Assembly: GCA_965240465.1 (NCBI GenBank)
Contig: OZ251219.1
Span: 1,206,681-1,270,680, forward strand
DNA: 64,000 nucleotides
From: a bacterium
Lineage (GTDB): Bacteria > SAR324 > JACQKK01
Direction of reading: 5' to 3'
Shown here: positions 1,347 through 63,322 of the stretch, one piece after another
How positions within the stretch are numbered: position 1 is the stretch's first letter
Layout: every line of letters starts with the position of its first letter
Position numbers and translations under genes: made by a program
Notes under the pieces: generated by a model
The model's input: the letters and a program-made list of their open reading frames with translations, nothing else
Told to the model about the DNA's origin: nothing
Databases searched by the model: none

Positions 1347-1527
1347 GGGGGGTAGGAAATTTTATTAGGTAGTTATCAGGTGGTGGTGGGGGGGGTATTA
1401 AGTGTGGATTAAGGAGGTAAGGGTTTAGAGTACCTAATGTATCTTAAATATAGTATGGTGGATGCCTTAATTACCTCAAGACGGTTTATTGGGGAGGTGA
1501 TTTAGATATTTTGTTTTGGGTATTTTT

Positions 1528-3915
1528 ATGAATATCGCCAGGGCGTGTTTTGATGGACGCGTTTCAGAGATAGATAAGCAGATTATTGAGGAGGAATTGC
1601 AGATTCTGGAGAGTATGCGTGGTTTTTTTCATTCAGCTGAGGGTCATTCTGAGCGGATGCTAGATGATGAGATGCTATGGTTGCGTGATTCCATGGCTGA
1701 GTCGAGTAAGGATGACCAAGCTCAGTTGATGGCACAGCTGATATCGGTTTCTGAGTTAGCCAAGCAGAGAGTTACTCCGATGGAGAGTGTTCAGGAAGGC
1801 ACGCCTTATTTTGGGCATTTACGCCTGAAGCAGGAGGGTAGGACTCGTGATGTGCTGATAGGCAATGCTAATTTGATGAGGAGTGAAGCCCCCATGCCGA
1901 TAGTGAATTGGCATAGTTCCCCAGTGAGTAGGGTATTTTATTGTTATCAGGAGGGGGATTTATTTGAGGAGAGTTTTGGTGGTCGTTTGGTGGATGGCGA
2001 GGTACTGGTACATAGGCGGTTGGTGATTGAGGGTGGTTTGCTATTGAGGGTGGAGTGTTTGCGGGGTCGTTTTCAGTTTATGGATGGTTGTTGGCGTCGG
2101 GTGAAGGAGCATCCTCTTAGTTTGACGGGTGGAGAGTATTCAGCTCTTCGTCCGAGCAAGGACAAGCCTAGTTTGGGGATTCAAGCCAGTGTTTCAGGAT
2201 TGAGTGATCGTCGGCTGGCGAATATAACGGGTCTGCTGGATGAGTCTCAGTACGAGTTAATCACCGATGCTGATAGTCAGGTGATGGTAGTGGATGGCGG
2301 GGCGGGTTCTGGCAAGACGACGGTAGCTTTGCATCGGCTAGCATTTTTATCTCAGCACGACCCTAAGCGATTTGTTCCTAGGCGGATGATGGTAGTGGTT
2401 TTCAGTGCTGCGATGGCATCCTATATTGAGCATTTTCTGCCTGCTCTGGAGGTACACAAATGTCGGATAGAGGTATATGAGAAGCTGGTAGAAAATTTAA
2501 GAAAGCGTCATTTTCCTAAGTTGCCAGCCGAGTATCACAGTACTACTACGGGTTTGGTTTGGCGTTTTAAGCATAGTTTTGTTTGTCAGGAGTTATTGCT
2601 TCGGGCTGCAAGCGAGCGGGCTGCCGAATGGGAAGCCGACCTGAGAGAAGCACTAGGTGAAGCTCCGCAGACTGAAATCTTGCTGGAGGGCTGGCGTAGA
2701 TCGTCTTTTGAGTTCATTGCTCTGAGACCGCGAATGTTTGTTCGGTGGCTGGAAAATAAGGATCCAGAGCGTCCTTCGCCGCCAGAGCTGGATTATCTTT
2801 CCAAGCAGAGATTGCAAAAAGCACTGCAGCCCTTTGAACGGCTAGTCACAAAACCAGAGCACTTCGTACTGGATATCTGGTCGGAAAGCTTTCTTAGCCA
2901 TGTCAAACTAACCGAACTGCTTAACAAAATCGCCCCCGATGCCTATACTCCCCAGCAAATCAGGGAACTACACCAAAAACTGTTCTCTGGATATAGCACC
3001 TTGCAAGATTGGCTAGAATGGAAATCGGAAACACCGACCGATGATCAATTATCAGGCAGCTTTAAGCTGGGTAAGGGAACTGCTCCCATTAAACCGCAAT
3101 TCTACCGAGAAGACGATACCATATTGCTATCATTATATCAGTCGCTTGTGGGACCACTACAAGAACACCGACAACCACTTAAACTCGCACATATCACCAT
3201 AGATGAAGCTCAAGACTTCAGCCCGCCAGAATTGAAAATGCTCCTAAATATAGCGGAAAAACCCTTCTCCCTCACCCTGGCTGGCGATACCGAACAACGC
3301 GTTATCCTCCATCAAGAACCCAAGGGGTGGATACCCATGCTACGCGAAATAGGACTGGAAAATCATGCCAACCTCCGACGACTAGAAGTCGGATACCGCG
3401 GCACTGAACCGATTATCAATTTCTCCCGCAAAATACTCGGACACCTCCACCAAGGACATCCTTGGCGTGCCATTCGGGGCGGACCTCCTGTTCTATTGCT
3501 GCAGTCCAAGCAAACAGGATTCGGACCTGCCATCTCCTTTATTGCTCCTATCCTTAAAAGCCTCCAACAACGAGAACCACATGCTACCATCGCCCTCATC
3601 GCCAGAGAAGAACAAGAAGCTCAAGATTATCATCAGGGCTTACTCAATGCCGATGTCCCCAAACTTAGGCTCGTGCTGGATTACAATTTCTCCTTCCAAG
3701 CAGGCACCGACATCACCACCATCACCCAAGTTAAAGGACTGGAATTTGATTATGTACTCATCCTCAACGTAAATCAGCAAAACTGGCACGATGATGACCA
3801 CTCCCGATTTCTCCTCCATGTCGCCGCTACCAGAGCAGCTCATCAACTCTGGCTCATCTGCTGTGGAACTCCCTCAAAACTGCTGCCTGATAACTTACAC
3901 ACTTATTTATTCTAA
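1528..3915 (+). CDS. UvrD/Rep-family ATP-dependent helicase, HelD (helicase IV)-like
   Basis: Walker A VVDGGAGSGKTTVALHRL, Walker B ITIDEAQDFSP, C-terminal VKGLEFDYVLI and VAATRAAHQLWL. A ~250-aa N-terminal domain contains PYFGHLRL...IVNWHSSPVSRVFY, resembling HelD. The ORF track starts at TTG 1516; the first ATG is at 1528. Confidence 0.8.
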   Translation: MNIARACFDGRVSEIDKQIIEEELQILESMRGFFHSAEGHSERMLDDEMLWLRDSMAESSKDDQAQLMAQLISVSELAKQRVTPMESVQEGTPYFGHLRLKQEGRTRDVLIGNANLMRSEAPMPIVNWHSSPVSRVFYCYQEGDLFEESFGGRLVDGEVLVHRRLVIEGGLLLRVECLRGRFQFMDGCWRRVKEHPLSLTGGEYSALRPSKDKPSLGIQASVSGLSDRRLANITGLLDESQYELITDADSQVMVVDGGAGSGKTTVALHRLAFLSQHDPKRFVPRRMMVVVFSAAMASYIEHFLPALEVHKCRIEVYEKLVENLRKRHFPKLPAEYHSTTTGLVWRFKHSFVCQELLLRAASERAAEWEADLREALGEAPQTEILLEGWRRSSFEFIALRPRMFVRWLENKDPERPSPPELDYLSKQRLQKALQPFERLVTKPEHFVLDIWSESFLSHVKLTELLNKIAPDAYTPQQIRELHQKLFSGYSTLQDWLEWKSETPTDDQLSGSFKLGKGTAPIKPQFYREDDTILLSLYQSLVGPLQEHRQPLKLAHITIDEAQDFSPPELKMLLNIAEKPFSLTLAGDTEQRVILHQEPKGWIPMLREIGLENHANLRRLEVGYRGTEPIINFSRKILGHLHQGHPWRAIRGGPPVLLLQSKQTGFGPAISFIAPILKSLQQREPHATIALIAREEQEAQDYHQGLLNADVPKLRLVLDYNFSFQAGTDITTITQVKGLEFDYVLILNVNQQNWHDDDHSRFLLHVAATRAAHQLWLICCGTPSKLLPDNLHTYLF

Positions 3916-3970
3916 AAAACAACCCATCCCTCACCTCACCCTCACCTCACCCCCCATCCCCCCTGAGAAC

Positions 3971-3999
3971 TTGACAAACCGATTGCCATTCCCTATACT
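3971..3999 (+). promoter_or_regulatory. sigma70-type promoter (TTGACA-17-TATACT)
   Basis: TTGACA at 3971-3976, a 17-nt spacer, TATACT at 3994-3999. It lies 56 nt after the helicase stop, and no protein-coding ORF follows it. Confidence 0.55.
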
Positions 4000-4005
4000 C
4001 GCCTT

Positions 4006-4684
4006 ATCGGGACATTTTTTACTCAAACTGCAGTCTTGCCAGACTAGTAGGCAAGCATGGATTAAAAAATGCTCTGAATACTGAATGAAAGGGAATGGGA
4101 AGTGACCACCTGAGGTTCCGTCAATACCGAAGGGTGGATCATACATGCCTTATGATGAGCTATGATCTTAATCGGTTACTTTGCTTTAATTGCAATTTGG
4201 CATGTGCAATGACGAGGAAGATGAGGAGGTGGACTGCACCGTAATCTCTTCTCCCCTCCGCTAATGAGCAGAGTTTCTGCCATTAAGGGAAACGCGGATT
4301 AAGCAGTCGGCAGAAACAATGGGGAGTGAAAACTCCGAAGGTCGTGAAACGCGGTTTCTGTTTTCTGGTGAGTACCTAGTCTGGTAGATTTTGGGTGCTT
4401 ATCCGATGAATATATTTCACGCCTAAGACCGAGCTGGGACTGGCATTGTCAGTCCTGATATCATCAGTCCGCTAGCTGCCAGAGCAAGTGCGAGATTGTA
4501 AGTCTCGGTCTACTGATTAGCAGTACCGTTTGGGTATTTGCTAGCGGAGCGGAGGTTGTCATTGCACACCGTAAGCTACCGTGGGGGGCTGGGAGGAAAT
4601 GCCATCATCTCCGTGGAAAGAGAATAATGGAGCAAGCAATGACATTCCCCATCTCTTTTATTCTGCTCCTTTAGTTTTTTTATT
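4006..4684 (+). ncRNA. candidate large structured RNA (~680 nt), family not recognised
   Basis: No + strand ORF of 60 aa or more. Nested helices: 4203-4213/4558-4568 (11 bp), 4255-4262/4548-4555 (8 bp), 4469-4476/4540-4547 (8 bp), 4273-4281/4309-4317 (9 bp), a GAAA-tetraloop hairpin at 4323-4336, 4437-4442/4450-4455, 4106-4111/4132-4137 and 4035-4040/4050-4055. There is a promoter upstream and a T-rich tail at 4670-4684. Confidence 0.45.
4621..4684 (+). terminator. possible intrinsic (perhaps bidirectional) terminator between the RNA candidate and the OLD gene
   Basis: Stem 4621-4627/4658-4664 plus 4629-4632/4653-4656 (alternative ggagca 4629-4634/tgctcc 4664-4669), followed by tttagtttttttatt. 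The loop is large, so the call is weak. Confidence 0.3.
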
Positions 4685-4690
4685 ACCGCC

Positions 4691-6580
4691 CTACACTTCA
4701 TCAACCTGCTCAGATCCATTAGCACCCGAGACATCAGTTTTTTTATAAGTTTCAATATTTGTTTTAGGCGGTAGTTTTTCCTTAGCTGCTGGTTTATTTT
4801 TTGTTTCACCAAATATTATTTTAATTTCTCTAATAATATTTTCTTTGCTTTTAGCCAACCCTTCAGGATCAGACATTAATGTTTCTATATCTGGATAAGA
4901 TGCTAATTCTATAATAAAACTATTAACGACACCTATATCAATATTTTTACTACAACCTTGAAGATTACTAAAATGAGGATCATTTTTTATTAGGTATGTA
5001 ACCTCATCTTTATCAAATATCTGTTCTATTTTTTTCCCATGTTTCAAATGATTAACTTGAACATTACATTCAGGATCCTTTGAGATATTATCACCAGAAT
5101 CATTCCCTGCGTTGTCGTCATCTAGCAAGCAATATACTTTTTCTTTAGGACAAAAAAATGAAGATATGAAAGATTCCATACTTGTAGTACCAGTCATGGG
5201 TATTATCCCAAAATCTTCTCCACTATCAACAGTGGATAAAGCATAATAATCTGTTATTCCCTCAACAACAACTATCTTATCTTTTGTAAAAGCCTCTTCA
5301 AGTAAAGAAGGTACAGAACCTAAAGCATCTCTTATTGGCTGAAAAGCCTCATCTTTCCCTTTTTTATGTTCTAGCGAGTGAGTTAATTTTATATTACTAT
5401 CATCTTTTATGTCTCTATGACATGTCATTGTTCTTGATAGAAATGCTTTTTGTAATAAATGTTGATAGTGAGTGGTATATACTACAAAATTTTTCTTTGC
5501 TAATTCTTTTAGAATCTTACCTAAGGCTACTTGCGAAGAAGCATGTAAATAACAACCTGGTTCATCTAATAAATAAATAACACCATTCTTATTTTTCCTA
5601 TAAGAGAAGGTTTTGATAATGAGGTTAAAGAACCATAAAAAACCTCTACTTCTTTGATCAAGATCAAAATCACTACTTTTTTTATTAATAATCTCTTTTT
5701 TATTAACAGTCTTTTTTTCCTCAACAGTCTCTACAATTCCAATATTAATCTCACCATTTTCACGAGATAATTCAATTTCTAATTTACTTTTAGACGAAAC
5801 ATCCTCAATCTTTTGTAAGTGATCCCATTCTTCTCTTAATTCATTGTTAAAATTAGTAGCTATGGTACGTAGTTGTTTCTTACCTATATTCATAATATTA
5901 CTACCAAAACTTTCAAGTATTCTCTTAAATGTCTGGAATGAATAATCGTTATAACCTTTATTGTTCTCTTTAGGAATTCCTATAGGACTACTTATCTTAT
6001 CTACATGATAATCGTAATAAACCATACGAGGAAGTCTTCTGATAACACTTTTATAGAAATTTATATCAAGATCATTTTCACTGAATGATTTAAATTCACC
6101 TATTTTAAATTTATATTCAGGTTTTTTATCATTTCCAATAGTTCTTGTAATTTCAATGGTATTATTTTTAGGTATCGCTTCACGGAAATTATCTACTGCA
6201 TCTGTCCAGCTACTATTAAAGCTACCAATATCATTATCAACATCTTCAAAAGTATATTCATGATCTTCATCATCTGGTACTTTATAGTTTAATCTTAAAA
6301 AAACATCCTTTAAATCTTCTTTTGTGCAAGAAATCTCTGCACATATGATTGCTTCCTCCCTCTCATCATAGTTATAGCGGTTAATAATATTTGTGAGGTG
6401 TTTATACCTTACATCATCATCATCATTTCTATAATCAAAAGCCAACATAGCTTGCAGTATGGTCGTTTTACCGCATTCATTTATGCCGATGATGGGAACA
6501 GCACCATTTTCACCTAATTTAACTTCTAAATCTTCAGATATTGCTTTGTATTTTCTAATGATGAATTTTTTGTAATGCAT
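4691..6580 (-). CDS. OLD-family nuclease (ABC/AAA-type ATPase + Toprim domain)
   Basis: 629 aa. Walker A IIGINECGKTTILQAM, Walker B/signature region VIYLLDEPGCYLHASSQ, Toprim IVVVEGITDYYAL plus the DxD-like CLLDDDNAGN. The gene is visibly AT-rich: spot counts give about 28-30% G+C against about 50% in the flanks. Confidence 0.85.
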   Translation of the reverse strand: MHYKKFIIRKYKAISEDLEVKLGENGAVPIIGINECGKTTILQAMLAFDYRNDDDDVRYKHLTNIINRYNYDEREEAIICAEISCTKEDLKDVFLRLNYKVPDDEDHEYTFEDVDNDIGSFNSSWTDAVDNFREAIPKNNTIEITRTIGNDKKPEYKFKIGEFKSFSENDLDINFYKSVIRRLPRMVYYDYHVDKISSPIGIPKENNKGYNDYSFQTFKRILESFGSNIMNIGKKQLRTIATNFNNELREEWDHLQKIEDVSSKSKLEIELSRENGEINIGIVETVEEKKTVNKKEIINKKSSDFDLDQRSRGFLWFFNLIIKTFSYRKNKNGVIYLLDEPGCYLHASSQVALGKILKELAKKNFVVYTTHYQHLLQKAFLSRTMTCHRDIKDDSNIKLTHSLEHKKGKDEAFQPIRDALGSVPSLLEEAFTKDKIVVVEGITDYYALSTVDSGEDFGIIPMTGTTSMESFISSFFCPKEKVYCLLDDDNAGNDSGDNISKDPECNVQVNHLKHGKKIEQIFDKDEVTYLIKNDPHFSNLQGCSKNIDIGVVNSFIIELASYPDIETLMSDPEGLAKSKENIIREIKIIFGETKNKPAAKEKLPPKTNIETYKKTDVSGANGSEQVDEV

Positions 6581-6614
6581 AGCTTAGACCTCTATTAATG
6601 AGCTGTTTTATGTA

Positions 6615-6643
6615 AGTATAGGACTAGATACTTTTATTGTAAA
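6615..6643 (-). promoter_or_regulatory. sigma70-type promoter for the OLD gene (TTTACA-17-TATACT)
   Basis: Minus strand reads TTTACA (6643-6638), a 17-nt spacer, TATACT (6620-6615). AGAGG lies ~9 nt upstream of the ATG at 6580. The promoter sits in the 79-bp gap after the ispG stop. Confidence 0.45.
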
Positions 6644-6659
6644 GCTATGCATTACTTAC

Positions 6660-8519
6660 TTATTTAGGTTCTTTCCAAGCCCCGTGCGTTTTAATTAGTT
6701 CTACTAGACGAGTTACAGCTTGCTCTGCGGGTACGCCTTTTTCCACGCATTGCTGCCCCTTATAGAGATTGATTTTCCCAGGGGCACCGCCTACATAACC
6801 GAAGTCGGCATCAGCCATTTCGCCTGGTCCGTTGACGATACATCCCATGATTCCTATTTTCAATCCTTTGAGATGTGCGGTTTTGGCTTTGATGCTGGCG
6901 GTGGTTAGTTGGAGGTCAAAGAGGGTTCTGCCGCAGGAGGGGCAAGAGATGTAATCGGTTTGGAAGGTTTTTAGTCTGGCGGCTTGCATGAGGGTTTGAC
7001 AGAATACGGATTCGGGGCTTTGGGGATTATCGTTGGGACAGATGATTGCGTCCAAGTAGCCGTCAACGGCGAGGGCACCGACTTCCACTGCGGTTTGGAT
7101 GGAGGTATCTTTGGGGGCGAGTTGAGGCAATCGGGCTGCGATGAGCCAATCTAGCCCGAGTTCTTGGAGGTAGAGGATGAGACGGCGAGCGGGTTGTAGG
7201 CAGTAGGGAGCATCCAGTACGAGCATACCTCTGTGGGGTTGATGTTTTAGGTTTTCTAGTAGGTAGGGGAGGTTTTGCCAGTCATCGGGTGAGATGAGCA
7301 GACAGAGGGGGTAGTTGAGAGAGGCGAGTTCGGGTGCGAGGGAGAAGGGGTATAGTCGCGGTAGTGGTGGTTTGGCGAGGAGTGGGGAGGGAGATTGTAA
7401 GCTAGTGCAGTTTGCGATGTGTGCGTCAAAGACCTCTTGTTTGTGGAAGGAAGGGAGTGAGAAGTGGGTTGGCGAGGCGGATGTTTGTGAGGCGGATGTT
7501 TGTGAGGAGGATGTTTGTGAGGAGGATGTTTGTGCGAGCAATGCGACTGGGTTTTGGTAGCCGAGGGATAGTTTTCCTAGTTGTATGGAGCGAGTTTTTC
7601 GTCTTTGGAAGGTTGTTGGTGGGAGCCATGGTACATTTTTCCAGTGGGGTCCTTGTGAGACGCTGTGGACGGCTTGGATGATGGCATTAGCGACGGGGAT
7701 TTCGTTTTCAGAGGGTTCGGTGAGTGATACTCGGATGGTGTCTCCGAGTCCATCGGCTAGGAGGGTTCCGATACCTAGTGCGGATTTACATCGTGCTTGG
7801 AGTCCGTCTCCGGCTTCTGTTACGCCGAGGTGTAGTGGGAAGTCCATATTTTTGGCGATCATATCTTTTGCGAGTAGTCGGTATGCGGCCACGGCGACCA
7901 AGGGATTGGAGGATTTCATTGAGACGATGACGGATTTGAAGTTATTTTTTTGGCAGATGAGGAGGTATTCCATAGCACATTGTACCATTCCCTTTGGAGT
8001 GTCTCCCCAGCGGTTGAGGATGCGGTCAGAGAGCGAGCCGTGGTTGACTCCGATTCTCAAGGCGCGTTGGGATTGTTGTAGTTTTTCTAGGAGAGGTTGG
8101 AAGGTTATTTGGACGCGTTGGAGTTCTTCTTTATATTGGGAGTTGGTATATTCTCGCAGTTGGAAGCGTTTTTGGTCTACGAAGTTCCCTGGGTTGATAC
8201 GTACTTTTTCCACCCATTGGGTGCAGTTTAGTGCTAGTGCGGGGTTGAAGTGAATATCGGCAGCTATGGGCATGGTTATGCCGTTCATTTTTTTGCGAAT
8301 GAGGGGCAATGCTTTTAGGTCTCGCCTAGTGGGAATTGTAATTCGCACCAGTTGACAGCCCGCGGTTTGTAGCCGTTGCATTTCCGCGATGACTTGGGAG
8401 ACATCGGTAGTGGGGCTGGTCAGCATGGATTGCACGCAGATAGGAGCGTTTCCTCCGATGACCAGATCTCCTACCTTAACCTCTCTGGATGCCCGACGAC
8501 ATACCGCCAAAGAACGCAT
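6660..8519 (-). CDS. ispG: 4-hydroxy-3-methylbut-2-en-1-yl diphosphate synthase, long form with inserted domain
   Basis: GGNAPICVQSM, ADIHF, INPGN, SCPSCGRT, MGCIVNGPGE. A large insertion separates the TIM-barrel and 4Fe-4S domains. The ORF extends to ATG 8579, but ATG 8519 has AGGA 7 nt upstream and aligns better with the E. coli N-terminus. Confidence 0.9.
   Translation of the reverse strand: MRSLAVCRRASREVKVGDLVIGGNAPICVQSMLTSPTTDVSQVIAEMQRLQTAGCQLVRITIPTRRDLKALPLIRKKMNGITMPIAADIHFNPALALNCTQWVEKVRINPGNFVDQKRFQLREYTNSQYKEELQRVQITFQPLLEKLQQSQRALRIGVNHGSLSDRILNRWGDTPKGMVQCAMEYLLICQKNNFKSVIVSMKSSNPLVAVAAYRLLAKDMIAKNMDFPLHLGVTEAGDGLQARCKSALGIGTLLADGLGDTIRVSLTEPSENEIPVANAIIQAVHSVSQGPHWKNVPWLPPTTFQRRKTRSIQLGKLSLGYQNPVALLAQTSSSQTSSSQTSASQTSASPTHFSLPSFHKQEVFDAHIANCTSLQSPSPLLAKPPLPRLYPFSLAPELASLNYPLCLLISPDDWQNLPYLLENLKHQPHRGMLVLDAPYCLQPARRLILYLQELGLDWLIAARLPQLAPKDTSIQTAVEVGALAVDGYLDAIICPNDNPQSPESVFCQTLMQAARLKTFQTDYISCPSCGRTLFDLQLTTASIKAKTAHLKGLKIGIMGCIVNGPGEMADADFGYVGGAPGKINLYKGQQCVEKGVPAEQAVTRLVELIKTHGAWKEPK
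7474..7533. repeat. in-frame tandem repeat inside ispG, 15-bp unit gaggcggatgtttgt x4
   Basis: Copies at 7474, 7489, 7504 and 7519. They encode SSQTS/SASQT repeats within the IspG insertion domain. Confidence 0.9.
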
Positions 8520-8619
8520 AAATAATCCTAAGTGTGTCAAGTTTGTGTTGAAGAGTACTAGTTTATCTTGTAATGCCATTTTATAGCTAGCAGATGCAAG
8601 TTTATGGTTCAGCGGTTTT

Positions 8620-8667
8620 GCGAATCTTTTGGCGAATCTTTTTGCGAATCTTTTTGCAGATCTTTTT
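8620..8667. repeat. tandem repeat, 12-bp unit gcgaatcttttt x4
   Basis: Lies in the divergent intergenic region between ispG and the LolA-like gene. Confidence 0.85.
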
Positions 8668-8760
8668 GTGATGTTTCAGCTGGTTTAGTATTAGATTTAG
8701 GACTACATATTGCATTACAAACGAGCGTTAACTGCCTTTAATAGTAGAGAGTTTGAGGTT

Positions 8761-11726: not shown

Positions 11727-11786
11727 CTACTAGACACGCTGCTACTAGACACGCTGCTACTAGACACGCTGCTACTAGACACGCTG
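11727..11786. repeat. tandem repeat, 15-bp unit ctactagacacgctg x4
   Basis: Perfect copies at 11727, 11742, 11757 and 11772. Intergenic. Confidence 0.9.
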
Positions 11787-11912
11787 CTAAACGCTACTGG
11801 GCTTGTCCCCCCCGAGCTATCCTGCCCCACCTGCTCCCCTCCTTTGCTGCTCTCCTCCTTTGCTCCTCCCCTCGCCATGCCCCTCCTGCCCTTAGCAGAA
11901 AGCTGCTGTTTA

Positions 11913-11962
11913 GCAATCACAATGAGACCGCAATGAGACCGCAATGAGATCGCAATGAGACT
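11913..11962. repeat. tandem repeat, 11-bp unit gcaatgagacc x~4.5
   Basis: aatgaga recurs at 11921, 11932, 11943 and 11954. Confidence 0.85.
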
Positions 11963-12526: not shown

Positions 12527-12637
12527 GCAAGCTGATAAGCCCGCAAGCTGATAGCCCGCAAGCTGATAAGCCCGCAAGCTGATAAGCCCGCAAGCTGATA
12601 AGCCCGCAAGCTGATAAGCCCGCAAGCTGATAAGCCG
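12527..12637. repeat. tandem repeat, 16-bp unit gcaagctgataagccc x7
   Basis: Copies start at 12527; one copy carries a 1-nt deletion. Intergenic. Confidence 0.9.
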
Positions 12638-20587: not shown

Positions 20588-20652
20588 CTAACGGATTCTG
20601 CTAATGGATTCTGCTAACGGATTTCGCTAATGGATTCTGCTAATGGATTTCG
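20588..20652. repeat. tandem repeat, 13-bp unit ctaayggattyyg x5
   Basis: Lies between ccmE and ccmF. Copies at 20588, 20601, 20614, 20627 and 20640. Confidence 0.9.
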
Positions 20653-20659
20653 CTAATAA

Positions 20660-23581: not shown

Positions 23582-25081
23582 TTGAACGTTGACAACCCTC
23601 AGCTCAGTTCTTTGCGGTCCCGTTCCCCAGAGGGATTACCTGCGAGTGTCCATTTGATTGGAATTTGTGGCACGGGGATGGCAGCCCTAGCCGCGGGATT
23701 ACAAGCCCAAGGGGTGCGAGTTTCGGGTTCGGATGCTCGTAGGCAGCCTCCCATCAGTGAGTACTTGGACGCTCTCAAGATAAGCTTTAATCAGGGATAT
23801 TGCCCTCAAAATTTGCCTGCTGAGGTGGATAGTATCGTGATCGGCAATGCGATTGTGAGCGATAATTCCGAAGCTCAAGCAGCCTTGAACAGCGGAAAGC
23901 CGTGCCTTTCCATGCCGCATGCGGTGCGAGAATGGCTAATTCAGTCCCGCGATGCCTTGGTAGTGGTGGGTACCCATGGCAAGACTACCATCACTTCGTT
24001 AATGGCTCATGTGCTATCTGGTTTGGGAGAAGACCCTGGCTACTTGGTGGGGGGGATTTCTCGTGATTTACAAGGGGCAGGAGAGGGTCGTTGGTTCGTG
24101 GTGGAGGGCGATGAATATGATAGTGCCTTTTTTGATAAGACCCCCAAGTTTTTTAAGTACCTACCTCATTGGTTGATATTCACTCAGCTGGAGTTTGACC
24201 ATGCTGATATTTATTCTGATCTGAGTGCCATCCGCGAGCAGTTTAGATTATTGTTACAGGGTCTCCCCGCCGATGGATTGCTAGTTGCCTGTTATGATGT
24301 TCCTGAGGTGCGTGCTTTGCTATCGGCATCCAACTGCGAGGTGGTGACCTATGGATTTGACCCTCAGGCTGATTTTCGTTTGCTGGATTGGCAAGCCGAT
24401 GGCTGGTGGGGAACCTTTGGTACTAAAGGGGAGGGCGGTACTAAAGGGGAGGGCGGTACTAAAGGGGAGGGCAGTACTAAAGGGGAGGGCAGTACTAAAG
24501 GGGAGGGGCAAAATCGCTGGCGAATTCCCTTGGTCGGCAAGCACAATGCTCTGAATGCAGCCGCAACGATATTGGTAGCGCGGAGATTAGGATATTCAGC
24601 TGAGGATATTCAGTCGGTGCTAGCTAAGTTTTCAGGGGTGCGGCGGAGGATGGAGTTGCGTGGCGAAAAAAGAGGAATCTTGGTTCTGGATGATTTTGCT
24701 CATCATCCTACCGCAGTAGCTGTTGCCATTGAGGCGGCTTTGAAAGCTTGGCCTGAGCGTCGTTTATGGGCGGTATTTGAGCCTCGTAGTTGGACGGCTA
24801 GCAGTTCGTATTTCCAGCAGGAGTTTATCAAGGCATTTGAGGGAGCTCCACACGTAGTGATTGCTCCCGCATTTCGCTCAGCCGTGGGCGACAAACCTTT
24901 ATTGGATGTTCAGGCCCTGGCGGATGCTCTAATTGCTCAGGGTCAAGATGCCCACAGCCCTACCGATACTAATGGCATTCTTAGCCTGCTTACCAAGCAA
25001 CTACAAGCAGGAGACGCAGTACTGATAATGTCCAATGGCGACTTTGAACAATTACATTCCCGCTTACTAGAAGCTCTTTAG
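23582..25081 (+). CDS. mpl: UDP-N-acetylmuramate:L-alanyl-gamma-D-glutamyl-meso-diaminopimelate ligase
   Basis: IGICGTGMAALA, GTHGKTT, EGDEYDSAFFDK, DDFAHHPTA. Uses a TTG start because no upstream ATG precedes the GICGTGM motif. Confidence 0.85.
   Translation: MNVDNPQLSSLRSRSPEGLPASVHLIGICGTGMAALAAGLQAQGVRVSGSDARRQPPISEYLDALKISFNQGYCPQNLPAEVDSIVIGNAIVSDNSEAQAALNSGKPCLSMPHAVREWLIQSRDALVVVGTHGKTTITSLMAHVLSGLGEDPGYLVGGISRDLQGAGEGRWFVVEGDEYDSAFFDKTPKFFKYLPHWLIFTQLEFDHADIYSDLSAIREQFRLLLQGLPADGLLVACYDVPEVRALLSASNCEVVTYGFDPQADFRLLDWQADGWWGTFGTKGEGGTKGEGGTKGEGSTKGEGSTKGEGQNRWRIPLVGKHNALNAAATILVARRLGYSAEDIQSVLAKFSGVRRRMELRGEKRGILVLDDFAHHPTAVAVAIEAALKAWPERRLWAVFEPRSWTASSSYFQQEFIKAFEGAPHVVIAPAFRSAVGDKPLLDVQALADALIAQGQDAHSPTDTNGILSLLTKQLQAGDAVLIMSNGDFEQLHSRLLEAL
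24419..24508. repeat. in-frame tandem repeat inside mpl, 18-bp unit ggtactaaaggggagggc x5
   Basis: Copies at 24419, 24437, 24455, 24473 and 24491. They encode GTKGEG x5. Confidence 0.92.
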
Positions 25082-25174
25082 CTATTTAGCTCCTTAGCTC
25101 TTTAGCTCCTTAGCTCTTTAGCTCTTTAGCTATTTAGCTCTTTAGCTATTTAGCTATTTAGCTCTTTAGCTATT
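25079..25174. repeat. tandem repeat, 8-bp unit tagctNtt x12
   Basis: Begins exactly at the mpl stop codon TAG (25079-25081). Confidence 0.9.
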
Positions 25175-25259
25175 TAGGAAGAAATGAGGGCGGGATGAGA
25201 TGGGGGGAGATGGGCAGGGCAGGGCGGGGCGGGGGGGGTTAACAGGCAGGGCGGGGGGG

Positions 25260-26838: not shown

Positions 26839-26907
26839 GCGGGAATAAGGGAAAATCAGGTGCGGGAATAAGGGAAAATCAGGTGCGGGGATAAGGGAAA
26901 ATCAGGC
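26839..26907. repeat. tandem repeat, 23-bp unit gcgggaataagggaaaatcaggt x3
   Basis: Copies at 26839, 26862 and 26885. Confidence 0.88.
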
Positions 26908-26915
26908 ACGGGAGG

Positions 26916-27005
26916 GGCAGCCACTGATGCCTTGGCAGCCACTGATGCCTTGGCAGCCACTGCTGCCTTGGTAGCCACTGCTACCTCGGTAGCCACTACC
27001 TTGGA
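26916..27005. repeat. tandem repeat, 18-bp unit ggcagccactgatgcctt x5 (decaying)
   Basis: Copies at 26916, 26934, 26952, 26970 and 26988. Directly abuts the 23-bp array. Confidence 0.85.
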
Positions 27006-42141: not shown

Positions 42142-43119
42142 ATGGTTTTTAATTTTTTAGCCAGTTTTTTTTCGGGCGTGAGAGCGGTTTATCTGATAGC
42201 GGTCCTGTTATTGCTGACACCCTCACTAGCATTTGCTCAGCAGGGGATGATGGATGCTTGGTCTTGGGAGCGATTGGTAATTACTCTGTTGATATTTGCC
42301 TTTTTTTTAGGAGTGCTATCGGTTTTGGCTGGGGTAGGTGGGGCATTGATTTTTGTTCCTTTGATGACTTTATGGGCTCCTTTTTTACATGTGGATTTTA
42401 TTCGGGCGACTGGTTTAATGATGGCTCTGGTGGGAGCTTTGTTTGCGGGACCGCTCTTGATACGCCAGCGATTAGTCAATTTTCGGCTGGCAATTTTGAT
42501 AGGAATGCTAAGTTCTACTGGGGCTATTTTCGGAGCGAAGATAGGATTGAGATTATCGGTACCTTTATTACAGCAGCTATTGGTGATGGTGATGCTAGTG
42601 GTAGTGTGTATGTATTTGGTACGCATTTCTAGAGGAGCTAAGGCAGCTCGTCAGCTGAAAACAGAGGAGAATGTTAGTCGCTGGCAGGGTTGGCTGAGGT
42701 TGGAAGCTCAGCTTTATGATTTTCCCAATCAACGCTGGTTAAGTTGGCAACCACGATTTTTATGGTTTTCGCTGGTGATGGTGGTGGGAGGAGGATTTCT
42801 TTCGGGCATGTTAGGGCTAGGAGGAGGATGGATTTATGTGCCGCTGTTAAATTTGGTGATGGGACTGCCATTGCGTTTTGCGGTAGCGACCAGTGGTTTT
42901 ATCATTGCCATTGTGAACACCGCGGCGGTGCCGATATACTTAAAACATGGGGCTTTGCAGCCATTGCTAAGTATCCCTTGTGTACTAGGAATGGTGTTGG
43001 GTGCGAGATTGGGGTCAAGACTGTTGCGTGTTGCCGACCATTACTGGCTGCAGTGGCTAGTATTATTGGTATTGTGTTTTTCGGGATTTCGGATCTTATT
43101 GAGGAGCTTTGGCTGGTAA
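42142..43119 (+). CDS. TauE/SafE family sulfite/anion exporter-like membrane protein
   Basis: 325 aa, two-fold repeated polytopic architecture with G-rich helices (VLAGVGGALIFVPL and LGLGGGWIYVPLL). Confidence 0.7.
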   Translation: MVFNFLASFFSGVRAVYLIAVLLLLTPSLAFAQQGMMDAWSWERLVITLLIFAFFLGVLSVLAGVGGALIFVPLMTLWAPFLHVDFIRATGLMMALVGALFAGPLLIRQRLVNFRLAILIGMLSSTGAIFGAKIGLRLSVPLLQQLLVMVMLVVVCMYLVRISRGAKAARQLKTEENVSRWQGWLRLEAQLYDFPNQRWLSWQPRFLWFSLVMVVGGGFLSGMLGLGGGWIYVPLLNLVMGLPLRFAVATSGFIIAIVNTAAVPIYLKHGALQPLLSIPCVLGMVLGARLGSRLLRVADHYWLQWLVLLVLCFSGFRILLRSFGW

Positions 43120-43129
43120 GATTACCTTG

Positions 43130-43505
43130 CCTCCTCGGTGCTTTCCATACTTTCTCAATAGCTCCCTCAATACTTTCTCGGTGCTTCCTCAATACTTTCC
43201 AATACTTTCTCAATGTTTCCTCAATGCTTTCTCGGTGCTTAATGCTCCCTCAATATACTTTCTCAATAGCTCCCTCAATGCTTAATGCTCGGTGCTTCCT
43301 CAATACTTTCATACTTTCTCAATAGCTCCCTCAATGCTTAATGCTCGGTGCTTCCTCAATACTTTCATACTTTCTCAATGCTCCCTCAATATACTTTCTC
43401 AATGTTTCCTCAATGCTTAATGCTCGGTGCTTCCTCAATACTTTCATACTTTCTCAATGCTCCCTCAATATACTTTCTCAATGCTTAATGCTCTCGGTGC
43501 TTCCT
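43130..43505. repeat. ~380-bp mosaic satellite built from ctcaat-containing modules, with ~56-bp higher-order units
   Basis: For example, agctccctcaatgcttaatgctcggtgcttcctcaatactttcatactttctcaat occurs at ~43268 and ~43324. Contains tttctcaatgctcc at 43371-43384. Confidence 0.85.
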
Positions 43506-43512
43506 CAAAAGG

Positions 43513-46833: not shown

Positions 46834-47013
46834 TGCTGAGAGTGCTTGCTGAGAGTGCTTGCTGAGAGTGCTTGCTGGGATGCTCTTGCTGAGAGTGCTT
46901 GCTGGGATGCTCTTGCTGAGAGTGCTTGCTGGGATGCTCTTGCTGAGAGTGCTTGCTGGGATGCTCTTGCTGAGAGTGCTTGCTGGGAGCTCTTGCTGGG
47001 ATGCTCTTGCTGA
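46834..47013. repeat. tandem repeat, 13/14-bp subunits (tgctgagagtgct / tgctgggatgctct) forming a 27-bp higher-order unit
   Basis: Starts 22 nt after the lysS stop. About 13 subunits. Confidence 0.9.
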
Positions 47014-47037
47014 GACACCCTGCCTCTCAGATAGTGC

Positions 47038-47797: not shown

Positions 47798-47931
47798 AGC
47801 CCCTACTCTCCCCTTTTTCTTCCAGCCCCCTACTCTCCCCTTTTTCTTCCAGCCCCCTACTCTCCCCTTTTTCTTCCAGCCCCCTACTCTCCCCTTTTTC
47901 TTCCAGCCCCTACTCTCCCCCTTTTTCTTCC
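47798..47931. repeat. tandem repeat, 26/27-bp unit agccccctactctcccctttttcttcc x5
   Basis: Lies between the 206-aa gene and the pnp stop. Confidence 0.9.
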
Positions 47932-47938
47932 AGCCAGC

Positions 47939-50011
47939 CTATTCTTGATAGCGAGTAAGTTTCAGCTTGCCCCTTTTATCGGTGCCAGATACGCGTACGC
48001 TGACGATATCTCCTTCCCGCATGAAGTCTTCCACTCGTTCTACTCTTCCTTCTGCCATTTGTGAGATGTGTAGTAGGCCATCGGTACCGGGCAGTAGTTC
48101 TATGAATGCTCCAAAATCGGTCACTTTTTTTACGGGTCCTTTGTAGACGGCCCCGATTTCCACTTCTGCGGTGATATTTTCCACCATTTTCAGTGCTTCT
48201 CTAGCTGCTTCGGGGTTTTCGGAGTGAATTTGAACTGTGCCATCATCTTGTACGTCTACTTTGGCACCTGTTTTTTCAATTATGCTCTTAATGGTTTTTC
48301 CGCTGGGGCCGATAAGTTCTCCGATGCGTCCTGGCTTGATGCGATGTACCAGCATGACGGGGGCATAGGGAGATAGTTCTTTTTTGGATGAAGTGATGGT
48401 TTTTTCCATTTCATCCAGAATGTTAATACGACCGTCAAGGGCTTGTTTCAGTGCTTGAGCGAGAATATTTTTATCAATTCCGCTGACCTTGATATCCATT
48501 TGCAAGGCGGTGATCCCCTCACGGGTGCCTGCGACTTTAAAATCCATGTCGCCCAGATGGTCTTCATCTCCCAAGATATCGGAGAGGATGACGGTGATTG
48601 TTCCTTCTTTAATCAAGCCCATGGCGATACCTGCGGCGTGTTTAGAGATGGGTACTCCAGCATCCATCAGTGCCAGAGAGGCTCCACAGACAGAAGCCAT
48701 AGAGGAAGAGCCATTGGATTCCAGAATTTCGGAAGTAATTCTGATAGTGTAGGGAAATTTTTCCTTACTGGGTAATAGTGGTTTGATGCCTTTTTGAGCC
48801 AGCATGCCATGCCCGATTTCTCTTCGTCCTGGGCCTCGCAAGAAGGAGGCTTCCCCGACACAAAAGGGAGGAAAATTGTAGTGAAAAAGAAAATCTTTGA
48901 AGCTGACACCATGGAGGTTGTCAATCAATTGTTGGTCTGAGCGGGCTCCCAGAGTGACGTTGACCAGGGCTTGTGTTTCTCCGCGGGTGAAAAGGGCAGA
49001 GCCATGGCAACGCGGCAGCAAGCCAATTTCGCTATTAATTTCTCTGATATCGGTCTGTGAGCGTCCATCCACCCGAGTGCCTTGGGAGGTGATTTGCTCT
49101 CTCATCAGGCGTTTTTTCAGGTTGCCAAAGATTTTTTCTACCTCTTTTTTGCGAGGTTCTTCATCGGATTGTGGATCATAAAATTTCTCCAGAGCCTGCT
49201 TTGACAGGGCATTCAAGGAGCCATAGCGAGCAAGTTTCTCTTTTTCGCTTAGGCTCTTAAGCAATGGTTCTGAAAACTGAGCTTCCATATTTTTTGCCAA
49301 AGCTTCATCAGTTTTGACCTCAGGTAAAGCACGCTTAGACAAACCAACTTTCTTTTGCAATTCTTCCTGAAGCTCAATCACTGGCAAAAGCTGTTGCTGA
49401 GCGAACAAAATAGATTCCAAAGCCAAATCCTCAGATATCTCATTAGCTTCCCCTTCCACCATCAATAGGCCTTCCTTGGAGCAAGTGACGAATATATCCA
49501 GCTCACTTTCAGCCAGCTGATCAGGGGTAGGATTAACAATCAGCTTGCCGTCAATTCTGCCTACTCGCATGCCAGCAATGGGTCCTGCAAAAGGGATGTC
49601 AGATATGCTCAAGGCGACTGAAGTACCAATCATGGCTGCTACTCCAGCCTCATTTTTCTTATCGTAGCTAAGCACCGTGGCGATGATTTGGGTCTCATAC
49701 TGAAATTCTGTGGGGAACAGCGGACGAATGGAGCGATCAATAAAGCGTGATATTAGGGTTTCATTATCCGAAAGGCGTCCTTCTCGGCGTAAGAACCCGC
49801 CAGGGATGCGACCAGCAGCATAATGTTTCTCCACATAATGCACCGAAAGCGGAAAGAAGGGTAAGTCTTTAGACTCTTTTTCCGCTACCGCAGTGACAAG
49901 TACTACCGTTTCGCCATAACGCACTAAGGCGGAACCAGATGCCTGACGAGCAATTCGTCCAACTTCAATTTTTAGGGGATTACCACCCAATTCAGTGGAA
50001 ACAATTTCCAT
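47939..50011 (-). CDS. pnp: polyribonucleotide nucleotidyltransferase (PNPase)
   Basis: 690 aa with two RNase PH domains plus KH (IGPSGKTIKSI) and S1 (GAVYKGPVKKVTDFGAFIEL). Confidence 0.95.
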   Translation of the reverse strand: MEIVSTELGGNPLKIEVGRIARQASGSALVRYGETVVLVTAVAEKESKDLPFFPLSVHYVEKHYAAGRIPGGFLRREGRLSDNETLISRFIDRSIRPLFPTEFQYETQIIATVLSYDKKNEAGVAAMIGTSVALSISDIPFAGPIAGMRVGRIDGKLIVNPTPDQLAESELDIFVTCSKEGLLMVEGEANEISEDLALESILFAQQQLLPVIELQEELQKKVGLSKRALPEVKTDEALAKNMEAQFSEPLLKSLSEKEKLARYGSLNALSKQALEKFYDPQSDEEPRKKEVEKIFGNLKKRLMREQITSQGTRVDGRSQTDIREINSEIGLLPRCHGSALFTRGETQALVNVTLGARSDQQLIDNLHGVSFKDFLFHYNFPPFCVGEASFLRGPGRREIGHGMLAQKGIKPLLPSKEKFPYTIRITSEILESNGSSSMASVCGASLALMDAGVPISKHAAGIAMGLIKEGTITVILSDILGDEDHLGDMDFKVAGTREGITALQMDIKVSGIDKNILAQALKQALDGRINILDEMEKTITSSKKELSPYAPVMLVHRIKPGRIGELIGPSGKTIKSIIEKTGAKVDVQDDGTVQIHSENPEAAREALKMVENITAEVEIGAVYKGPVKKVTDFGAFIELLPGTDGLLHISQMAEGRVERVEDFMREGDIVSVRVSGTDKRGKLKLTRYQE

Positions 50012-50017
50012 ATATAG

Positions 50018-50284
50018 CTACCTACGCAACTGCAATTCAGTTATCAACTTTTGGTATCGTTGATAATTCTTGCGACCGAGATAATTCAACAATCGCCGGC
50101 GTTTGCTAACCATCTTAAGTAGCCCTCGTCGTGAATGATGATCCTTTAAATGAGCTTTGAAATGTCCAGTCAGCTCTTTTATCCGAGTAGATAACAAAGC
50201 TACCTGTACCTCCGAAGTGCCAGTATCTCCCGCATTCTTGCCAAATTTCTTAATGATTTCTTTTGTCTTTTCAGGGTCTAACAT
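50018..50284 (-). CDS. rpsO: 30S ribosomal protein S15
   Basis: [14 protein letters not shown]-like [14 protein letters not shown], and [25 protein letters not shown]. Confidence 0.95.
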
Positions 50285-50442
50285 GCAAATCTGCTTAGGG
50301 GGAACATTTCTTCTCTACTCTAGAAGACCACCCTACCTACCTTTTCATGACTTGTCAAGCATATTAAAGTAAAAAAAATGCTAATTCACTTATTATAATA
50401 ATTGTATAACTAATCTAGTTCAAATTCTTTGATATCTGGTGC

Positions 50443-52914: not shown

Positions 52915-52942
52915 TATCAGTCTAGAAAGCGACATTGAAAAA

Positions 52943-53124
52943 GGAGCACTGAGAAAGGAGCACTGAGAAAGGAGCACTGAGAAAGGAGCACTGAGAAAGG
53001 AGCACTGAGAAAGGAGCACTGAGAAAGGAGCACTGAGAAAGGAGCACTGAGAAAGGAGCACTGAGAAAGGAGCACTGAGAAAGGAGCACTGAGAAAGGAG
53101 CACTGAGAAAGGAACACTGAGAAA
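52943..53124. repeat. tandem repeat, 14-bp unit ggagcactgagaaa x13
   Basis: Copies every 14 bp from 52943 to 53111. The last copy reads ggaacactgagaaa. Lies in the infB-rbfA intercistronic region. Confidence 0.95.
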
Positions 53125-53156
53125 GGAATATTTATTGGCTTATGTGGTAGCGAGAA

Positions 53157-55760: not shown

Positions 55761-57512
55761 TTAGTCTGTGGCGGGGACTTCTTCAGTTTTTTTTGCGGTG
55801 CCTTCTTCAGTGCCTTCTTTAGAGCTTTGTGCAGGGATTTCTTCAGTGCCTTCTTTAGAGCTTTGTGCAGGGATTTCTTCAGTGCCTTCTTTAGAGCTTT
55901 GTGCAGGGATTTCTTCAGTGCCTTCTTCAGTGCCTTCTTCAGTGCTTTGTGCGGGGATTTCTTCAGTGCCTTCTTTAGAGCTTTGAGCAGGGATTTCTTC
56001 AGTGCCTTCTTTAGAGCTTTGAGCAGGGATTTCTTCAGTGCCTTCTTTAGAGCTTTGTGCAGGGATTTCTTCAGTGCCTTCTTTAGAGCTTTGTGCAGGG
56101 ATTTCTTCAGTGCCTTCTTCAGTGCCTTCTTCAGTGCTTTTTGCAGGGATTTCTTCAGTGCCTTCTTCAGTGCCTTCTTTAGAGCTCTGTGCGGTGCCTT
56201 CTTTAGTGCCTTCTTTAGTGCCTTCTTTAGAGCTTTGTGCAGGGATTTCTTCAGTGCCTTCTTTAGAGCTTTGTGCGGGGATTTCTTCAGTGCCTTCTTT
56301 AGAGCTTTTTGCAGGGATTTCTTCAGTGCCTTTTTTAGAGCTTTGTGCAGTCTGCTCTGGATCCTGGGATTTATTTAGGTTATTTTTATTATCTTTTTGA
56401 TTAAGTTCTGATTGTTTATCCAGTTCGGCTTGTGAAGCGAGCAGGCGTTCTCTGATTTGTGCTTCTATGCTGAGGGTTTGGTCTACGGTGGAGGAGATGT
56501 TTATTTTTTTATTGAGCAGTTTGGAAGCCAAGCGAACATTTTGTCCTTGCCGACCAATGGCGAGCGATAGTTGTTCTGGTTCTACCTGAACATCTATTTC
56601 TTCACTTTCCTCGTTGAATTTCACTCGGCTCAGTTCAGCAGGTGCGAGGGCGTTGGCTAGGTAGATAAGGGGATCTTCGCTGTATTGGACGATGTCTATT
56701 TTTTCGCCTCGCAGTTCATTTACGATTGATTGTACTCGGGAGCCTCTCATACCCACGCAGGCTCCTACGGGATCGACATCGGAGTCATTGGAACGTACGG
56801 CTACTTTGGCACGTTTGCCGGGTTCTCGTGCGGCTAGGACTATTTCCACCACGTTGTCATAGATTTCGGGTACTTCAGTTTCAAACAGCTTCATCAGCAG
56901 ACTGGGATGGGATCGCGAAACCACTAATTGAGCTGGTTCTTTGGGATCGTTGCGTACTTCCAGCAAAATCACGCGGATGTGGTCTCCGCTGGAGTATCTT
57001 TCGGTAGGAATTTGTTCTCTGGGGTATAGAATGGCTTCTGTCTGGTTGAAATTAATATAAGTGCGACCGCGTTCACTACGGCTAATTACCCCATTGATTA
57101 TATCCCCTATCCGATTCTTAAATTTTTCGTAGATGAATTCGCGTTCGGCTTCACGCACCTTTTGAAATACCATGTGACGAGCAGTTTGGGCGATTACTTT
57201 GCGTAGATCTTCGTTATCTATTTCGTATTCCACCACATCTCCCAGTTGAGCGGAGTCGTCTAGGGATTTGGCTTCTTGCAGAGAAAGATTATTATCGGGG
57301 TCATCGGATTCTTCTACTACGGTTTTGTAGTGAAAGACCTCCAAGGAGCCAGTATTTTGGTTAATGCGAGTTTCTAGATCGTTATACTGGGAAAACTTGC
57401 GTTTGGCAGCCAGGGTGATGGCTTCTTGAACGACCTGTATCAGACGATCTTTGTTAATTCCCTTAGCGTAGGAAATATCACTAAGGGCTTTAAGCAGTTC
57501 TTCTTGTTGCAT
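55761..57512 (-). CDS. nusA: transcription termination/antitermination factor NusA with a repeat-built C-terminal tail
   Basis: N-terminal domain, S1 domain and two KH domains (GACVGMRGSRVQ, AIGRQGQNVRLAS). The C-terminal ~190 aa are GTEEIPAQSSKE-type repeats. Confidence 0.93.
   Translation of the reverse strand: MQQEELLKALSDISYAKGINKDRLIQVVQEAITLAAKRKFSQYNDLETRINQNTGSLEVFHYKTVVEESDDPDNNLSLQEAKSLDDSAQLGDVVEYEIDNEDLRKVIAQTARHMVFQKVREAEREFIYEKFKNRIGDIINGVISRSERGRTYINFNQTEAILYPREQIPTERYSSGDHIRVILLEVRNDPKEPAQLVVSRSHPSLLMKLFETEVPEIYDNVVEIVLAAREPGKRAKVAVRSNDSDVDPVGACVGMRGSRVQSIVNELRGEKIDIVQYSEDPLIYLANALAPAELSRVKFNEESEEIDVQVEPEQLSLAIGRQGQNVRLASKLLNKKINISSTVDQTLSIEAQIRERLLASQAELDKQSELNQKDNKNNLNKSQDPEQTAQSSKKGTEEIPAKSSKEGTEEIPAQSSKEGTEEIPAQSSKEGTKEGTKEGTAQSSKEGTEEGTEEIPAKSTEEGTEEGTEEIPAQSSKEGTEEIPAQSSKEGTEEIPAQSSKEGTEEIPAQSSKEGTEEIPAQSTEEGTEEGTEEIPAQSSKEGTEEIPAQSSKEGTEEIPAQSSKEGTEEGTAKKTEEVPATD
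55790..56350. repeat. in-frame tandem repeat, 36-bp unit (with 9-bp sub-repeats) x~15 at the nusA 3' end
   Basis: ttcttcagtgccttctttagagctttgtgcagggat and variants. Boundaries are approximate. Confidence 0.9.
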
Positions 57513-58233: not shown

Positions 58234-58342
58234 CTTTTTGTTTTTATATCAGCGGACAATACAGGGTACCTTAACCCTCAGCAATATGCCCGAACTGGAA
58301 ACAATCTTTATCTTCCACCCATACCTGTAAAAAAAGAATTCT

Positions 58343-58522
58343 GCAAGCCAAAAGAGTTTGGCGAGCCAAAAGAGTTCTGCAAGCCAAAAGAATTCGGCAA
58401 GCCAAAAGAATCTGGCAAGCCAGAAGAATCTGGCAAGCCAAAAGAATCTGGCAAGCCAAAAGAATCTGGCAAGCCAAAAGAATCTGGCAAGCCAAAAGAG
58501 TTCTGCAAGCCAGAAGAATTCG
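58343..58522. repeat. tandem repeat, 18-bp unit gcaagccaaaagaatctg x10
   Basis: Copies every 18 bp from 58343 to 58505. Lies upstream of rimP. Confidence 0.95.
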
Positions 58523-58532
58523 GCAAACCCTC

Positions 58533-62752: not shown

Positions 62753-62920
62753 TGGGTACCTTTACATCTATGAATAATCACTTGCCCTGCCGTACATCTT
62801 CCAGCAATTGCGGTGCTGGGCAATATATTATAAAACCAGTTAGCAAAAGATTATTTTCATTCGTACTGGTATATCAAACAGATGTCCATTTTGTTGCATT
62901 TGCAATTATCATTGTTGGCT

Positions 62921-62974: not shown

Positions 62975-63054
62975 TGCCTCATTGTTGGCTGGCAGGCTGA
63001 TTGGGTGTATACTCGGCAAAGGTATTTTTTTGCATGAAGACTTGCAATATTGGT

Positions 63055-63316: not shown

Positions 63317-63322
63317 CAAAAA

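Follow-up and report, generated by a model that had tools for sequence, protein, structure and literature searches.

Gene context of the candidate locus

In the 64-kb window analysed here (64,000 nt of contig OZ251219.1, assembly GCA_965240465.1, from a bacterium of the SAR324 lineage), a UvrD-like helicase gene and a gene for an OLD-family ATPase/nuclease converge on a gap of 775 nt (3916-4690 in window coordinates). No other intergenic gap in the window is as long, the second longest measuring 495 nt. According to the map of open reading frames (ORFs), 87% of the window is coding, and the gap makes up 1.2% of it. Within this 1.2%, three features coincide, namely the largest gap, the best promoter, which is aimed inward, and the best fold outside repeats, which lies on the promoter strand. 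The gap is tentatively read as a lineage-specific structured non-coding RNA (ncRNA) gene on the plus strand that falls in no known class, an interpretation judged from the sequence to be plausible, with a confidence slightly short of even. The features of the locus are listed in Table 1. The guanine-plus-cytosine (GC) content of the structured core is 49.5%, as against 42.3% for the other spacers and 41% for the candidate's own leader.

Table 1. Features of the candidate locus in window coordinates, with z-scores of folding stability where available
Feature	Position	Strand	Remarks
tRNA-Ala	1221-1293 (also given as 1220-1293)		just upstream of the helicase gene; Rfam match at gathering level
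UvrD-like helicase gene	1516-3915	+	left neighbour of the gap; GC ~48%
C-rich, G-poor tract	3916-3966	+	directly after the helicase stop; two copies of CCCTCACCTCA plus C runs; direct repeat 3928-3949
Sigma-70-type promoter match, TTGACA-17 nt-TATACT	3971-3999	+	11/12 match; 56 nt past the helicase stop (3915)
5' leader of the presumed primary transcript	4006-4202	+	5'-terminal hairpin 4007-4078 and hairpin 4106-4137; z -0.44 (4000-4202) and -1.15
Structured core of the candidate ncRNA	4203-4568	+	366 nt; minimum free energy (MFE) -149.3 kcal/mol; GC 49.5%
P1, predicted closing helix	4203-4215/4556-4568	+	13 bp; 11 bp of it (4203-4213/4558-4568) perfect, extendable to 13
Predicted hairpin	4216-4252	+	inserted on the 5' side between P1 and P3
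P3, predicted helix	4255-4262/4548-4555	+	8 bp; 3' strand contiguous with the 3' strand of P1
Predicted multi-helix junction of four or five helical elements enclosed by P3	hairpin 4273-4317; GAAA hairpin 4323-4336; domains 4339-4424 and 4426-4511; hairpin 4513-4547	+	
Alternative helix	4468-4476/4540-4548	+	9 bp; competes with the MFE pairing
3' linker from core to terminal hairpin	4569-4620	+	no significant structure; z +0.13 for 4569-4700
AT-rich stem AGAATAATGGAG / CTCTTTTATTCT plus GGAGCA/TGCTCC	4621-4684	both	inverted repeat; T-run after the stem on +, T-rich run on -
OLD-family ATPase/nuclease gene	4691-6580	-	right neighbour of the gap; 629 aa; ~29% GC versus 46% for the genome
GcpE gene	6660-8579	-	beyond the OLD gene

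Promoter, transcript ends and coding potential

The promoter match described in the earlier note, which was made from the letters of this stretch alone, is present 56 nt after the helicase stop, and agrees with the consensus in 11 of 12 positions. Sites of this quality or better are rare, since only two were found on both strands of the window (128 kb), against 0.7 expected. The second is located upstream of the gene at 30303, and at least five of the sites matching in 10 of 12 positions are also located upstream of genes. As the weaker sites mostly precede genes, the organism appears to use the sigma-70 consensus. Here, transcription would start near 4006. At the opposite end of the gap, the stem followed by a T-rich run was likewise found where it had been described, and it is probably a bidirectional terminator common to the candidate RNA and the convergent OLD gene. 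The stem was not called in a consensus terminator scan because its loop exceeds 8 nt. The GC content of 4616-4690 is 37%, so that by composition the terminal hairpin belongs to the AT-rich OLD island, which extends from approximately 4616 to approximately 6650 and takes in the terminal hairpin, not the core.

As had also been claimed, no ORF of 60 aa or more follows the promoter on the plus strand, the longest with an ATG start being 49 aa in length (4095-4244). Across the whole of 3916-4690 no ORF exceeds 97 aa, and all six frames are ridden with stops. It is highly improbable that the promoter serves a small protein gene, such as the Cys-containing 49-aa ORF, of which the structured part would form the 3' untranslated region. 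This ORF begins 90 nt past the putative start and carries AAGGGA immediately upstream, but the purine tract abuts the ATG, so that the spacing expected of a ribosome-binding site is wrong, and the 3' third of the ORF falls within the core's closing helix and first hairpin. Furthermore, no homologue of the 49-aa product was detected in a set of 1.84 billion representative proteins, and a Pfam search of seven small ORFs of the gap returned nothing.

Folding statistics and predicted structure of the core

The folding excess is limited to the core. Its plus strand has a z-score of -6.8 against 100 dinucleotide shuffles (-7.05 against 60 shuffles), while that of the minus strand is -4.6. For comparison, 174 fixed-grid windows of 366 nt taken from the 64 kb gave a mean of +0.2, with a standard deviation of 1.3 and a minimum of -3.8. 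The core is thus stable beyond both its shuffles and the genomic background, with an asymmetry between strands. When the whole 691 nt were folded, the z-score was only -3.1 on the plus strand and -3.4 on the minus strand (20 shuffles each), and the plus strands of leader and tail are close to zero (Table 1). Of the helix-rich RNA of approximately 680 nt that had been proposed, it is therefore the 366-nt core that is structured beyond chance, whereas the leader and tail fold no better than shuffled sequence.

The sub-domains of the core each reach z-scores of -2.5 to -4.1 on the plus strand, and the fold is weaker on the minus strand in 11 of 12 sub-regions. As every sub-domain is significant, the signal is distributed over the core and does not come from a single inverted repeat. 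The MFE structure of the plus strand contains 130 pairs, 16 of them G.U, compared with 122 pairs and 6 G.U on the minus strand. Together with the z-scores of the core, these counts favour the plus strand.

The boundaries of the core were taken from its closing helix, and boundary-optimised RNALfold z-scores for both strands of the window were hence used as a control. In this ranking the core locus takes sixth place, behind five short tandem-repeat arrays whose units are self-complementary; these arrays are artefacts for an RNA search and were set aside for that reason. When the structures of 250 nt or more outside repeats were rescored with dinucleotide shuffles, the core locus came first at -6.5, followed by structures at -5.9 and -5.4. 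The second of these large folds (49774-50098, plus strand, z -5.9) covers the 3' end of the ORF 47939-50011 on the minus strand and the 431-nt spacer 50012-50442, and has no match in Rfam.

The helices of the candidate are a thermodynamic prediction. Those listed in the earlier note were all found, including the 11-bp and 8-bp helices now contained in P1 and P3, a 9-bp helix (4273-4281/4309-4317), the GGAGU-GAAA-ACUCC hairpin, a hairpin placed at 4437-4455 that was recovered as 4436-4456, and the U4111.G4132 pair in the leader hairpin 4106-4137. The helix given as 4469-4476/4540-4547 also exists and can be lengthened to 9 bp, but it competes with the MFE pairing and is listed in Table 1 as an alternative. 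No loop-loop pseudoknot of 5 bp or more was found among the loops of the MFE structure.

Known RNA families

At the gathering thresholds of Rfam 15, tRNA-Ala was the only match in the 64-kb window. When 3850-4800 was searched at E up to 10, three matches at chance level were obtained, with 17-19 bits against thresholds of 40-70. Families without a match in Rfam include RNase P, tmRNA, 6S, SRP, group I and II introns, OLE, ROOL, GOLLD, HEARO and retron msr, and ARAGORN detected no tmRNA. The covariance search therefore agrees with the earlier view that the locus belongs to no known family. A type III toxin-antitoxin RNA of the ToxI kind was considered and rejected. Such RNAs consist of tandem direct repeats of approximately 36 nt that precede the toxin gene and share its transcript, whereas 3971-4690 contains no tandem array, and the OLD gene converges with the candidate instead of following it.

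In general appearance the candidate resembles the OLE, ROOL, GOLLD and raiA classes, which are also several hundred nucleotides in length, multi-helix and free of ORFs, and which occupy long, relatively GC-rich intergenic regions. Like them, it is not a cis-regulator of a downstream gene, the next gene being convergent. It differs in having no Rfam match even at E up to 10. Moreover, those classes are defined by many covarying homologues, while the candidate is one sequence with a thermodynamic prediction.

Relatives, synteny and the possibility of relic DNA

The lineage is an orphan, its helicase, OLD and GcpE proteins falling into three separate clusters of their own, all on one contig of 1.6 Mb. 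Judged by protein similarity, it is close in character to SAR324 or Lambdaproteobacteria. The nearest genome is ENA ERZ25069801 contig_60, the helicase of which is 55% and the GcpE 60% identical. There, the tRNA-helicase block is directly followed by a permease and an ABC ATPase, and GcpE is followed by a hydrolase. The 44 kb fetched from this relative contain no OLD gene, no candidate-like sequence and no gap of 366 nt. A tRNA is located upstream of the helicase in both genomes (at 9606-9678 of the relative's fetched stretch, with the isotype not determined there). The tRNA-helicase order is thus kept on the 5' side, and synteny breaks exactly at the 3' end of the helicase gene, where the candidate begins.

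Homologues of the candidate were sought in several collections. None was found by blastn against plasmids and phages, by nhmmer over 93 fetched loci, or in the contexts of more distant helicases. Among GTDB genomes selected by GcpE, the relatives reached at most 53% identity and gave no nucleotide match to the candidate. The JGI metagenomes and IMG/VR were scanned with degenerate patterns derived from the three plus-strand frames of the core treated as pseudo-proteins, and no genuine homologue of the core was obtained; the single match was located inside a phage gene, had no similarity at the DNA level and was rejected as spurious. The class that had been proposed, a large structured ncRNA outside known families, is thus supported in part, from this one sequence, by promoter, fold, gap and the lack of an Rfam match, but no homologue was found in any collection searched. 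Regarding coding remnants, only chance matches resulted from tblastn searches with the two downstream genes of the relative and from a tblastx comparison with its 44 kb. In view of the stops in all six frames, the negative Pfam search and the lack of a match for the 49-aa ORF, a detectable decayed protein gene was rejected.

The main rival explanation, considered doubtful, is that the gap consists of non-functional relic DNA at a rearrangement and insertion junction. It could be the remnant of a mobile element, for instance a 366-bp miniature inverted-repeat element bounded by TGTGCAATGAC...GTCATTGCACA, or a long-decayed gene. The promoter-like site would then be fortuitous or left over, and the folding excess would derive from old inverted repeats. 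This explanation gains from the break in synteny with the sole relative, beside an acquired gene of 29% GC, and from the absence of a homologue in any collection searched. The spacers of the genome are, moreover, generally repeat-rich, and the margin of the core over the best background folds is modest. The terminal inverted repeats TGTGCAATGAC / GTCATTGCACA are perfect over 11 bp (11 of 11), with TG at the start and CA at the end, and many DDE transposon ends likewise start with TG and finish with CA. In its 366-bp unit, perfect terminal repeats and strong folding, the core is indeed similar to a miniature inverted-repeat element. It is unlike one in that no target-site duplication flanks the repeats (GGCA on the left, CCGT on the right) and in that no second copy of the core occurs in 64 kb, where the terminal repeat likewise has no further match beyond a resemblance, at chance level, to a 13-nt tandem array. 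It is also branched, not rod-like, and strand-biased. The fold is multi-branched, with approximately 10 helices and significant sub-domains, and it has a plus-strand and G.U bias that would not be expected of decaying palindromes. Furthermore, no protein remnant was found, and the genome is compact, the 87% coding window containing no other comparable gap.

The OLD gene and its relation to the candidate

The OLD gene forms a compact island of approximately 2 kb (4616-6659) that is inserted between the RNA candidate and GcpE and is absent from the sole relative. The GC content of the island is 29%, as against 46% for the genome. The OLD gene has its own promoter-like site on the minus strand (TTTACA-17-TATACT, with the -35 element at 6643). 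A stable hairpin at 6571-6656 (support-vector-machine z -5.7) is probably the terminator of GcpE. The OLD protein carries a C-terminal extension of approximately 50-65 aa relative to its homologues, all of which are 34% identical or less.

OLD proteins are divided into stand-alone (class 1), Gabija (class 2) and retron (class 3) systems, of which class 3 is the only one with an ncRNA and requires a reverse transcriptase (PMC10568477). Gabija, consisting of GajA and the helicase GajB, was rejected here, the two genes being convergent and differing in GC content (~48% versus 29%), and orthologues of the helicase at 55%, 41% and 40% identity having no adjacent OLD gene. PARIS is usually counted as a fourth OLD class.

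In the earlier note the RNA was envisaged as a regulator, antitoxin or cofactor of the OLD nuclease, and the present results do not support a tie between the two. That the RNA works with or against the nuclease, as a convergent antisense regulator, an RNA antitoxin or a cofactor, is improbable. Both genes converge on the hairpin 4621-4684, so that their 3' ends would be complementary; this is the only physical link between the RNA and OLD, and terminator sharing by convergent genes is so commonplace that it carries no weight alone. Two parts of the core, the 3' strand of P1 and the 5' arm of the GAAA hairpin, are complementary to the loop of the terminator (4636-4652). The GC-rich structured segment could have travelled with the adjoining AT-rich acquired gene. 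The composition of leader and promoter is host-like. When the contexts of three OLD homologues were sampled, no comparable ORF-free 3' flank was observed. The gaps were approximately 230 nt or less, and the flanks were occupied by a MazE-like gene, an FtsX gene or a restriction subunit. At 34% identity or less, a shared cassette would in any case be untraceable. By crude duplex scoring, the complementarity of the RNA to the translation start of OLD ranked 47th among 49 genes. It should be added that class 1 OLD needs no partner, ncRNA being confined to the retron class (PMC10568477). In a narrower form of this explanation, the 366-nt fold would be an RNA antitoxin, sensor or cofactor of a class 1-like OLD, and would have arrived with the AT-rich island as its GC-rich structured partner. 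We consider this more improbable still; if true, it would represent an OLD-plus-ncRNA defence module independent of reverse transcriptase and would be of high interest.

Type I toxin-antitoxin systems offer a further comparison. The candidate is similar to these in being convergent with a potentially toxic gene, with which it would have complementary 3' ends at one terminator. In Bacillus subtilis, RatA/txpA and SR4/bsrG comprise 3'-overlapping antisense RNAs with small-peptide toxins and a functional overlap of 75-120 nt. Unlike these, the partner here is a nuclease of 629 aa, the overlap would be the terminator hairpin only, and the pairing has no conservation support.

A further alternative, which is scarcely credible, is that the locus is the minus-strand remnant of a type I-B2 (class 3A OLD) retron that lost its reverse transcriptase as the locus became linked to the helicase block. 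The minus strand would then be read as OLD followed by an msr-msd ncRNA closed by a1/a2 inverted repeats; class 3A retrons carry the OLD gene upstream of the ncRNA and reverse transcriptase (PMC10568477). The candidate shares with the ncRNA (msr-msd) of retrons such as Retron-Eco8, of the class 3 OLD type, its position beside an OLD-family gene, its ncRNA-like size and the pairing of its ends by an inverted repeat of 11-13 bp, similar to a1/a2. The OLD protein itself weakly matches the retron I-B ATPase-Toprim model (E 1.3e-9, residues 17-86 only), but the generic AriA and Old models fit it better. No reverse transcriptase ORF or remnant was found in 3916-4690, the neighbouring genes are the helicase and GcpE, and the Rfam retron msr model gave no match. 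The fold of the minus strand is the weaker one (z -4.6 against -6.8), the promoter points the other way, and on the minus strand the closing helix lacks a G, as needed for branching, immediately past its 5' arm. In addition, 366 nt is about twice the usual size, typical retron ncRNAs being far shorter.

Tandem repeats and other features of the window

No intrinsic terminator was called after the helicase gene in the terminator scan. The C-rich tract that follows the helicase stop separates the helicase transcription unit from the RNA promoter, and might act in Rho-dependent termination. This tract is rut-like on the plus strand and prone to G-quadruplex formation on the minus strand. Within the helicase ORF, GC skew flips mid-gene from approximately +0.4 in the first half to approximately -0.25 in the second, which is unusual within one gene.

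Short tandem repeats saturate the window, with 72 entries from Tandem Repeats Finder in 64 kb and periods of 8-84 nt. Nearly every intergenic spacer has its own array, often with a self-complementary unit, for example at 450-515, 978-1038, 8616-8668, 11727-11961, 12527-12636, 20588-20657, 25072-25177, 26839-26997, 46834-47015, 47800-47935, 52924-53127, 58332-58526 and 63043-63318. These arrays yield the most extreme folding z-scores of the window (down to -12.5), so that structure scans of this genome are misled by them. The 18-nt unit GGCTTGCCAGATTCTTTT and its variants form two arrays 4.5 kb apart, at 58332-58526 (approximately 11 copies) and 62916-62978 (3.5 copies). Repeats also extend into coding sequence. 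A 36-nt unit is present in 15 copies at 55778-56351, inside the 583-aa ORF 55761-57512, and a 15-nt unit in 4 copies at 7474-7534 codes for an SSSQTS-type insert of GcpE. A complex array with periods of 11, 56 and 79 nt (43139-43508) starts in the 3' end of 42744-43325, one of two overlapping ORFs, and runs through the spacer to 43513.

Proposed organisation of the RNA and its significance

Several findings weigh against a structured RNA gene. The terminator is weak and has the composition of the OLD island, and the structured part begins 200 nt past the promoter. With boundaries optimised, the core exceeds the best background folds by a modest margin (-6.5 versus -5.9), and its ensemble diversity is only mildly low, with 10 of 80 shuffles equally well defined. 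The candidate is placed precisely where synteny is lost, next to a horizontally acquired gene, and relic DNA would be expected at such a site. In addition, the sole relative leaves no space for an RNA like this next to either of the flanking genes. Furthermore, as the candidate is a single sequence with no homologue found, no helix has covariation support. On the other side stand the observations of a promoter match, absence of ORFs, excess folding stability with plus-strand bias and no known family, from which we infer the transcription, processing, exact fold and function of the candidate RNA.

In the model that is favoured here, the promoter would start a primary transcript of approximately 680 nt, which would extend to the hairpin and U-tract at 4621-4684. 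The functional part would be the compact multi-helix domain of 366 nt. This domain would be closed by the 13-bp helix stacked on the 8-bp helix, by which the 5' and 3' ends would be brought together. Such a stacked helix, of approximately 21 bp, could allow the domain to be excised by a double-strand-specific RNase. The most likely role would be that of a stand-alone folded RNA, either a protein-binding scaffold or a catalytic-type fold, which serves the host and not the OLD nuclease. Only a small number of RNAs of comparable size have a closed multi-helix core, and among them are several that turned out to be ribozymes or scaffolds of large ribonucleoproteins.

The negative result on the OLD link is itself useful, since nothing supports the candidate as a cofactor of the OLD nuclease. 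If the favoured interpretation is true, the RNA would be a new family of a familiar general kind, the orphan mid-sized structured bacterial ncRNAs, such as are expected in unexplored lineages. It would then define a new class among the mid-sized structured RNAs, and come from a bacterial lineage that is deep and poorly sampled.

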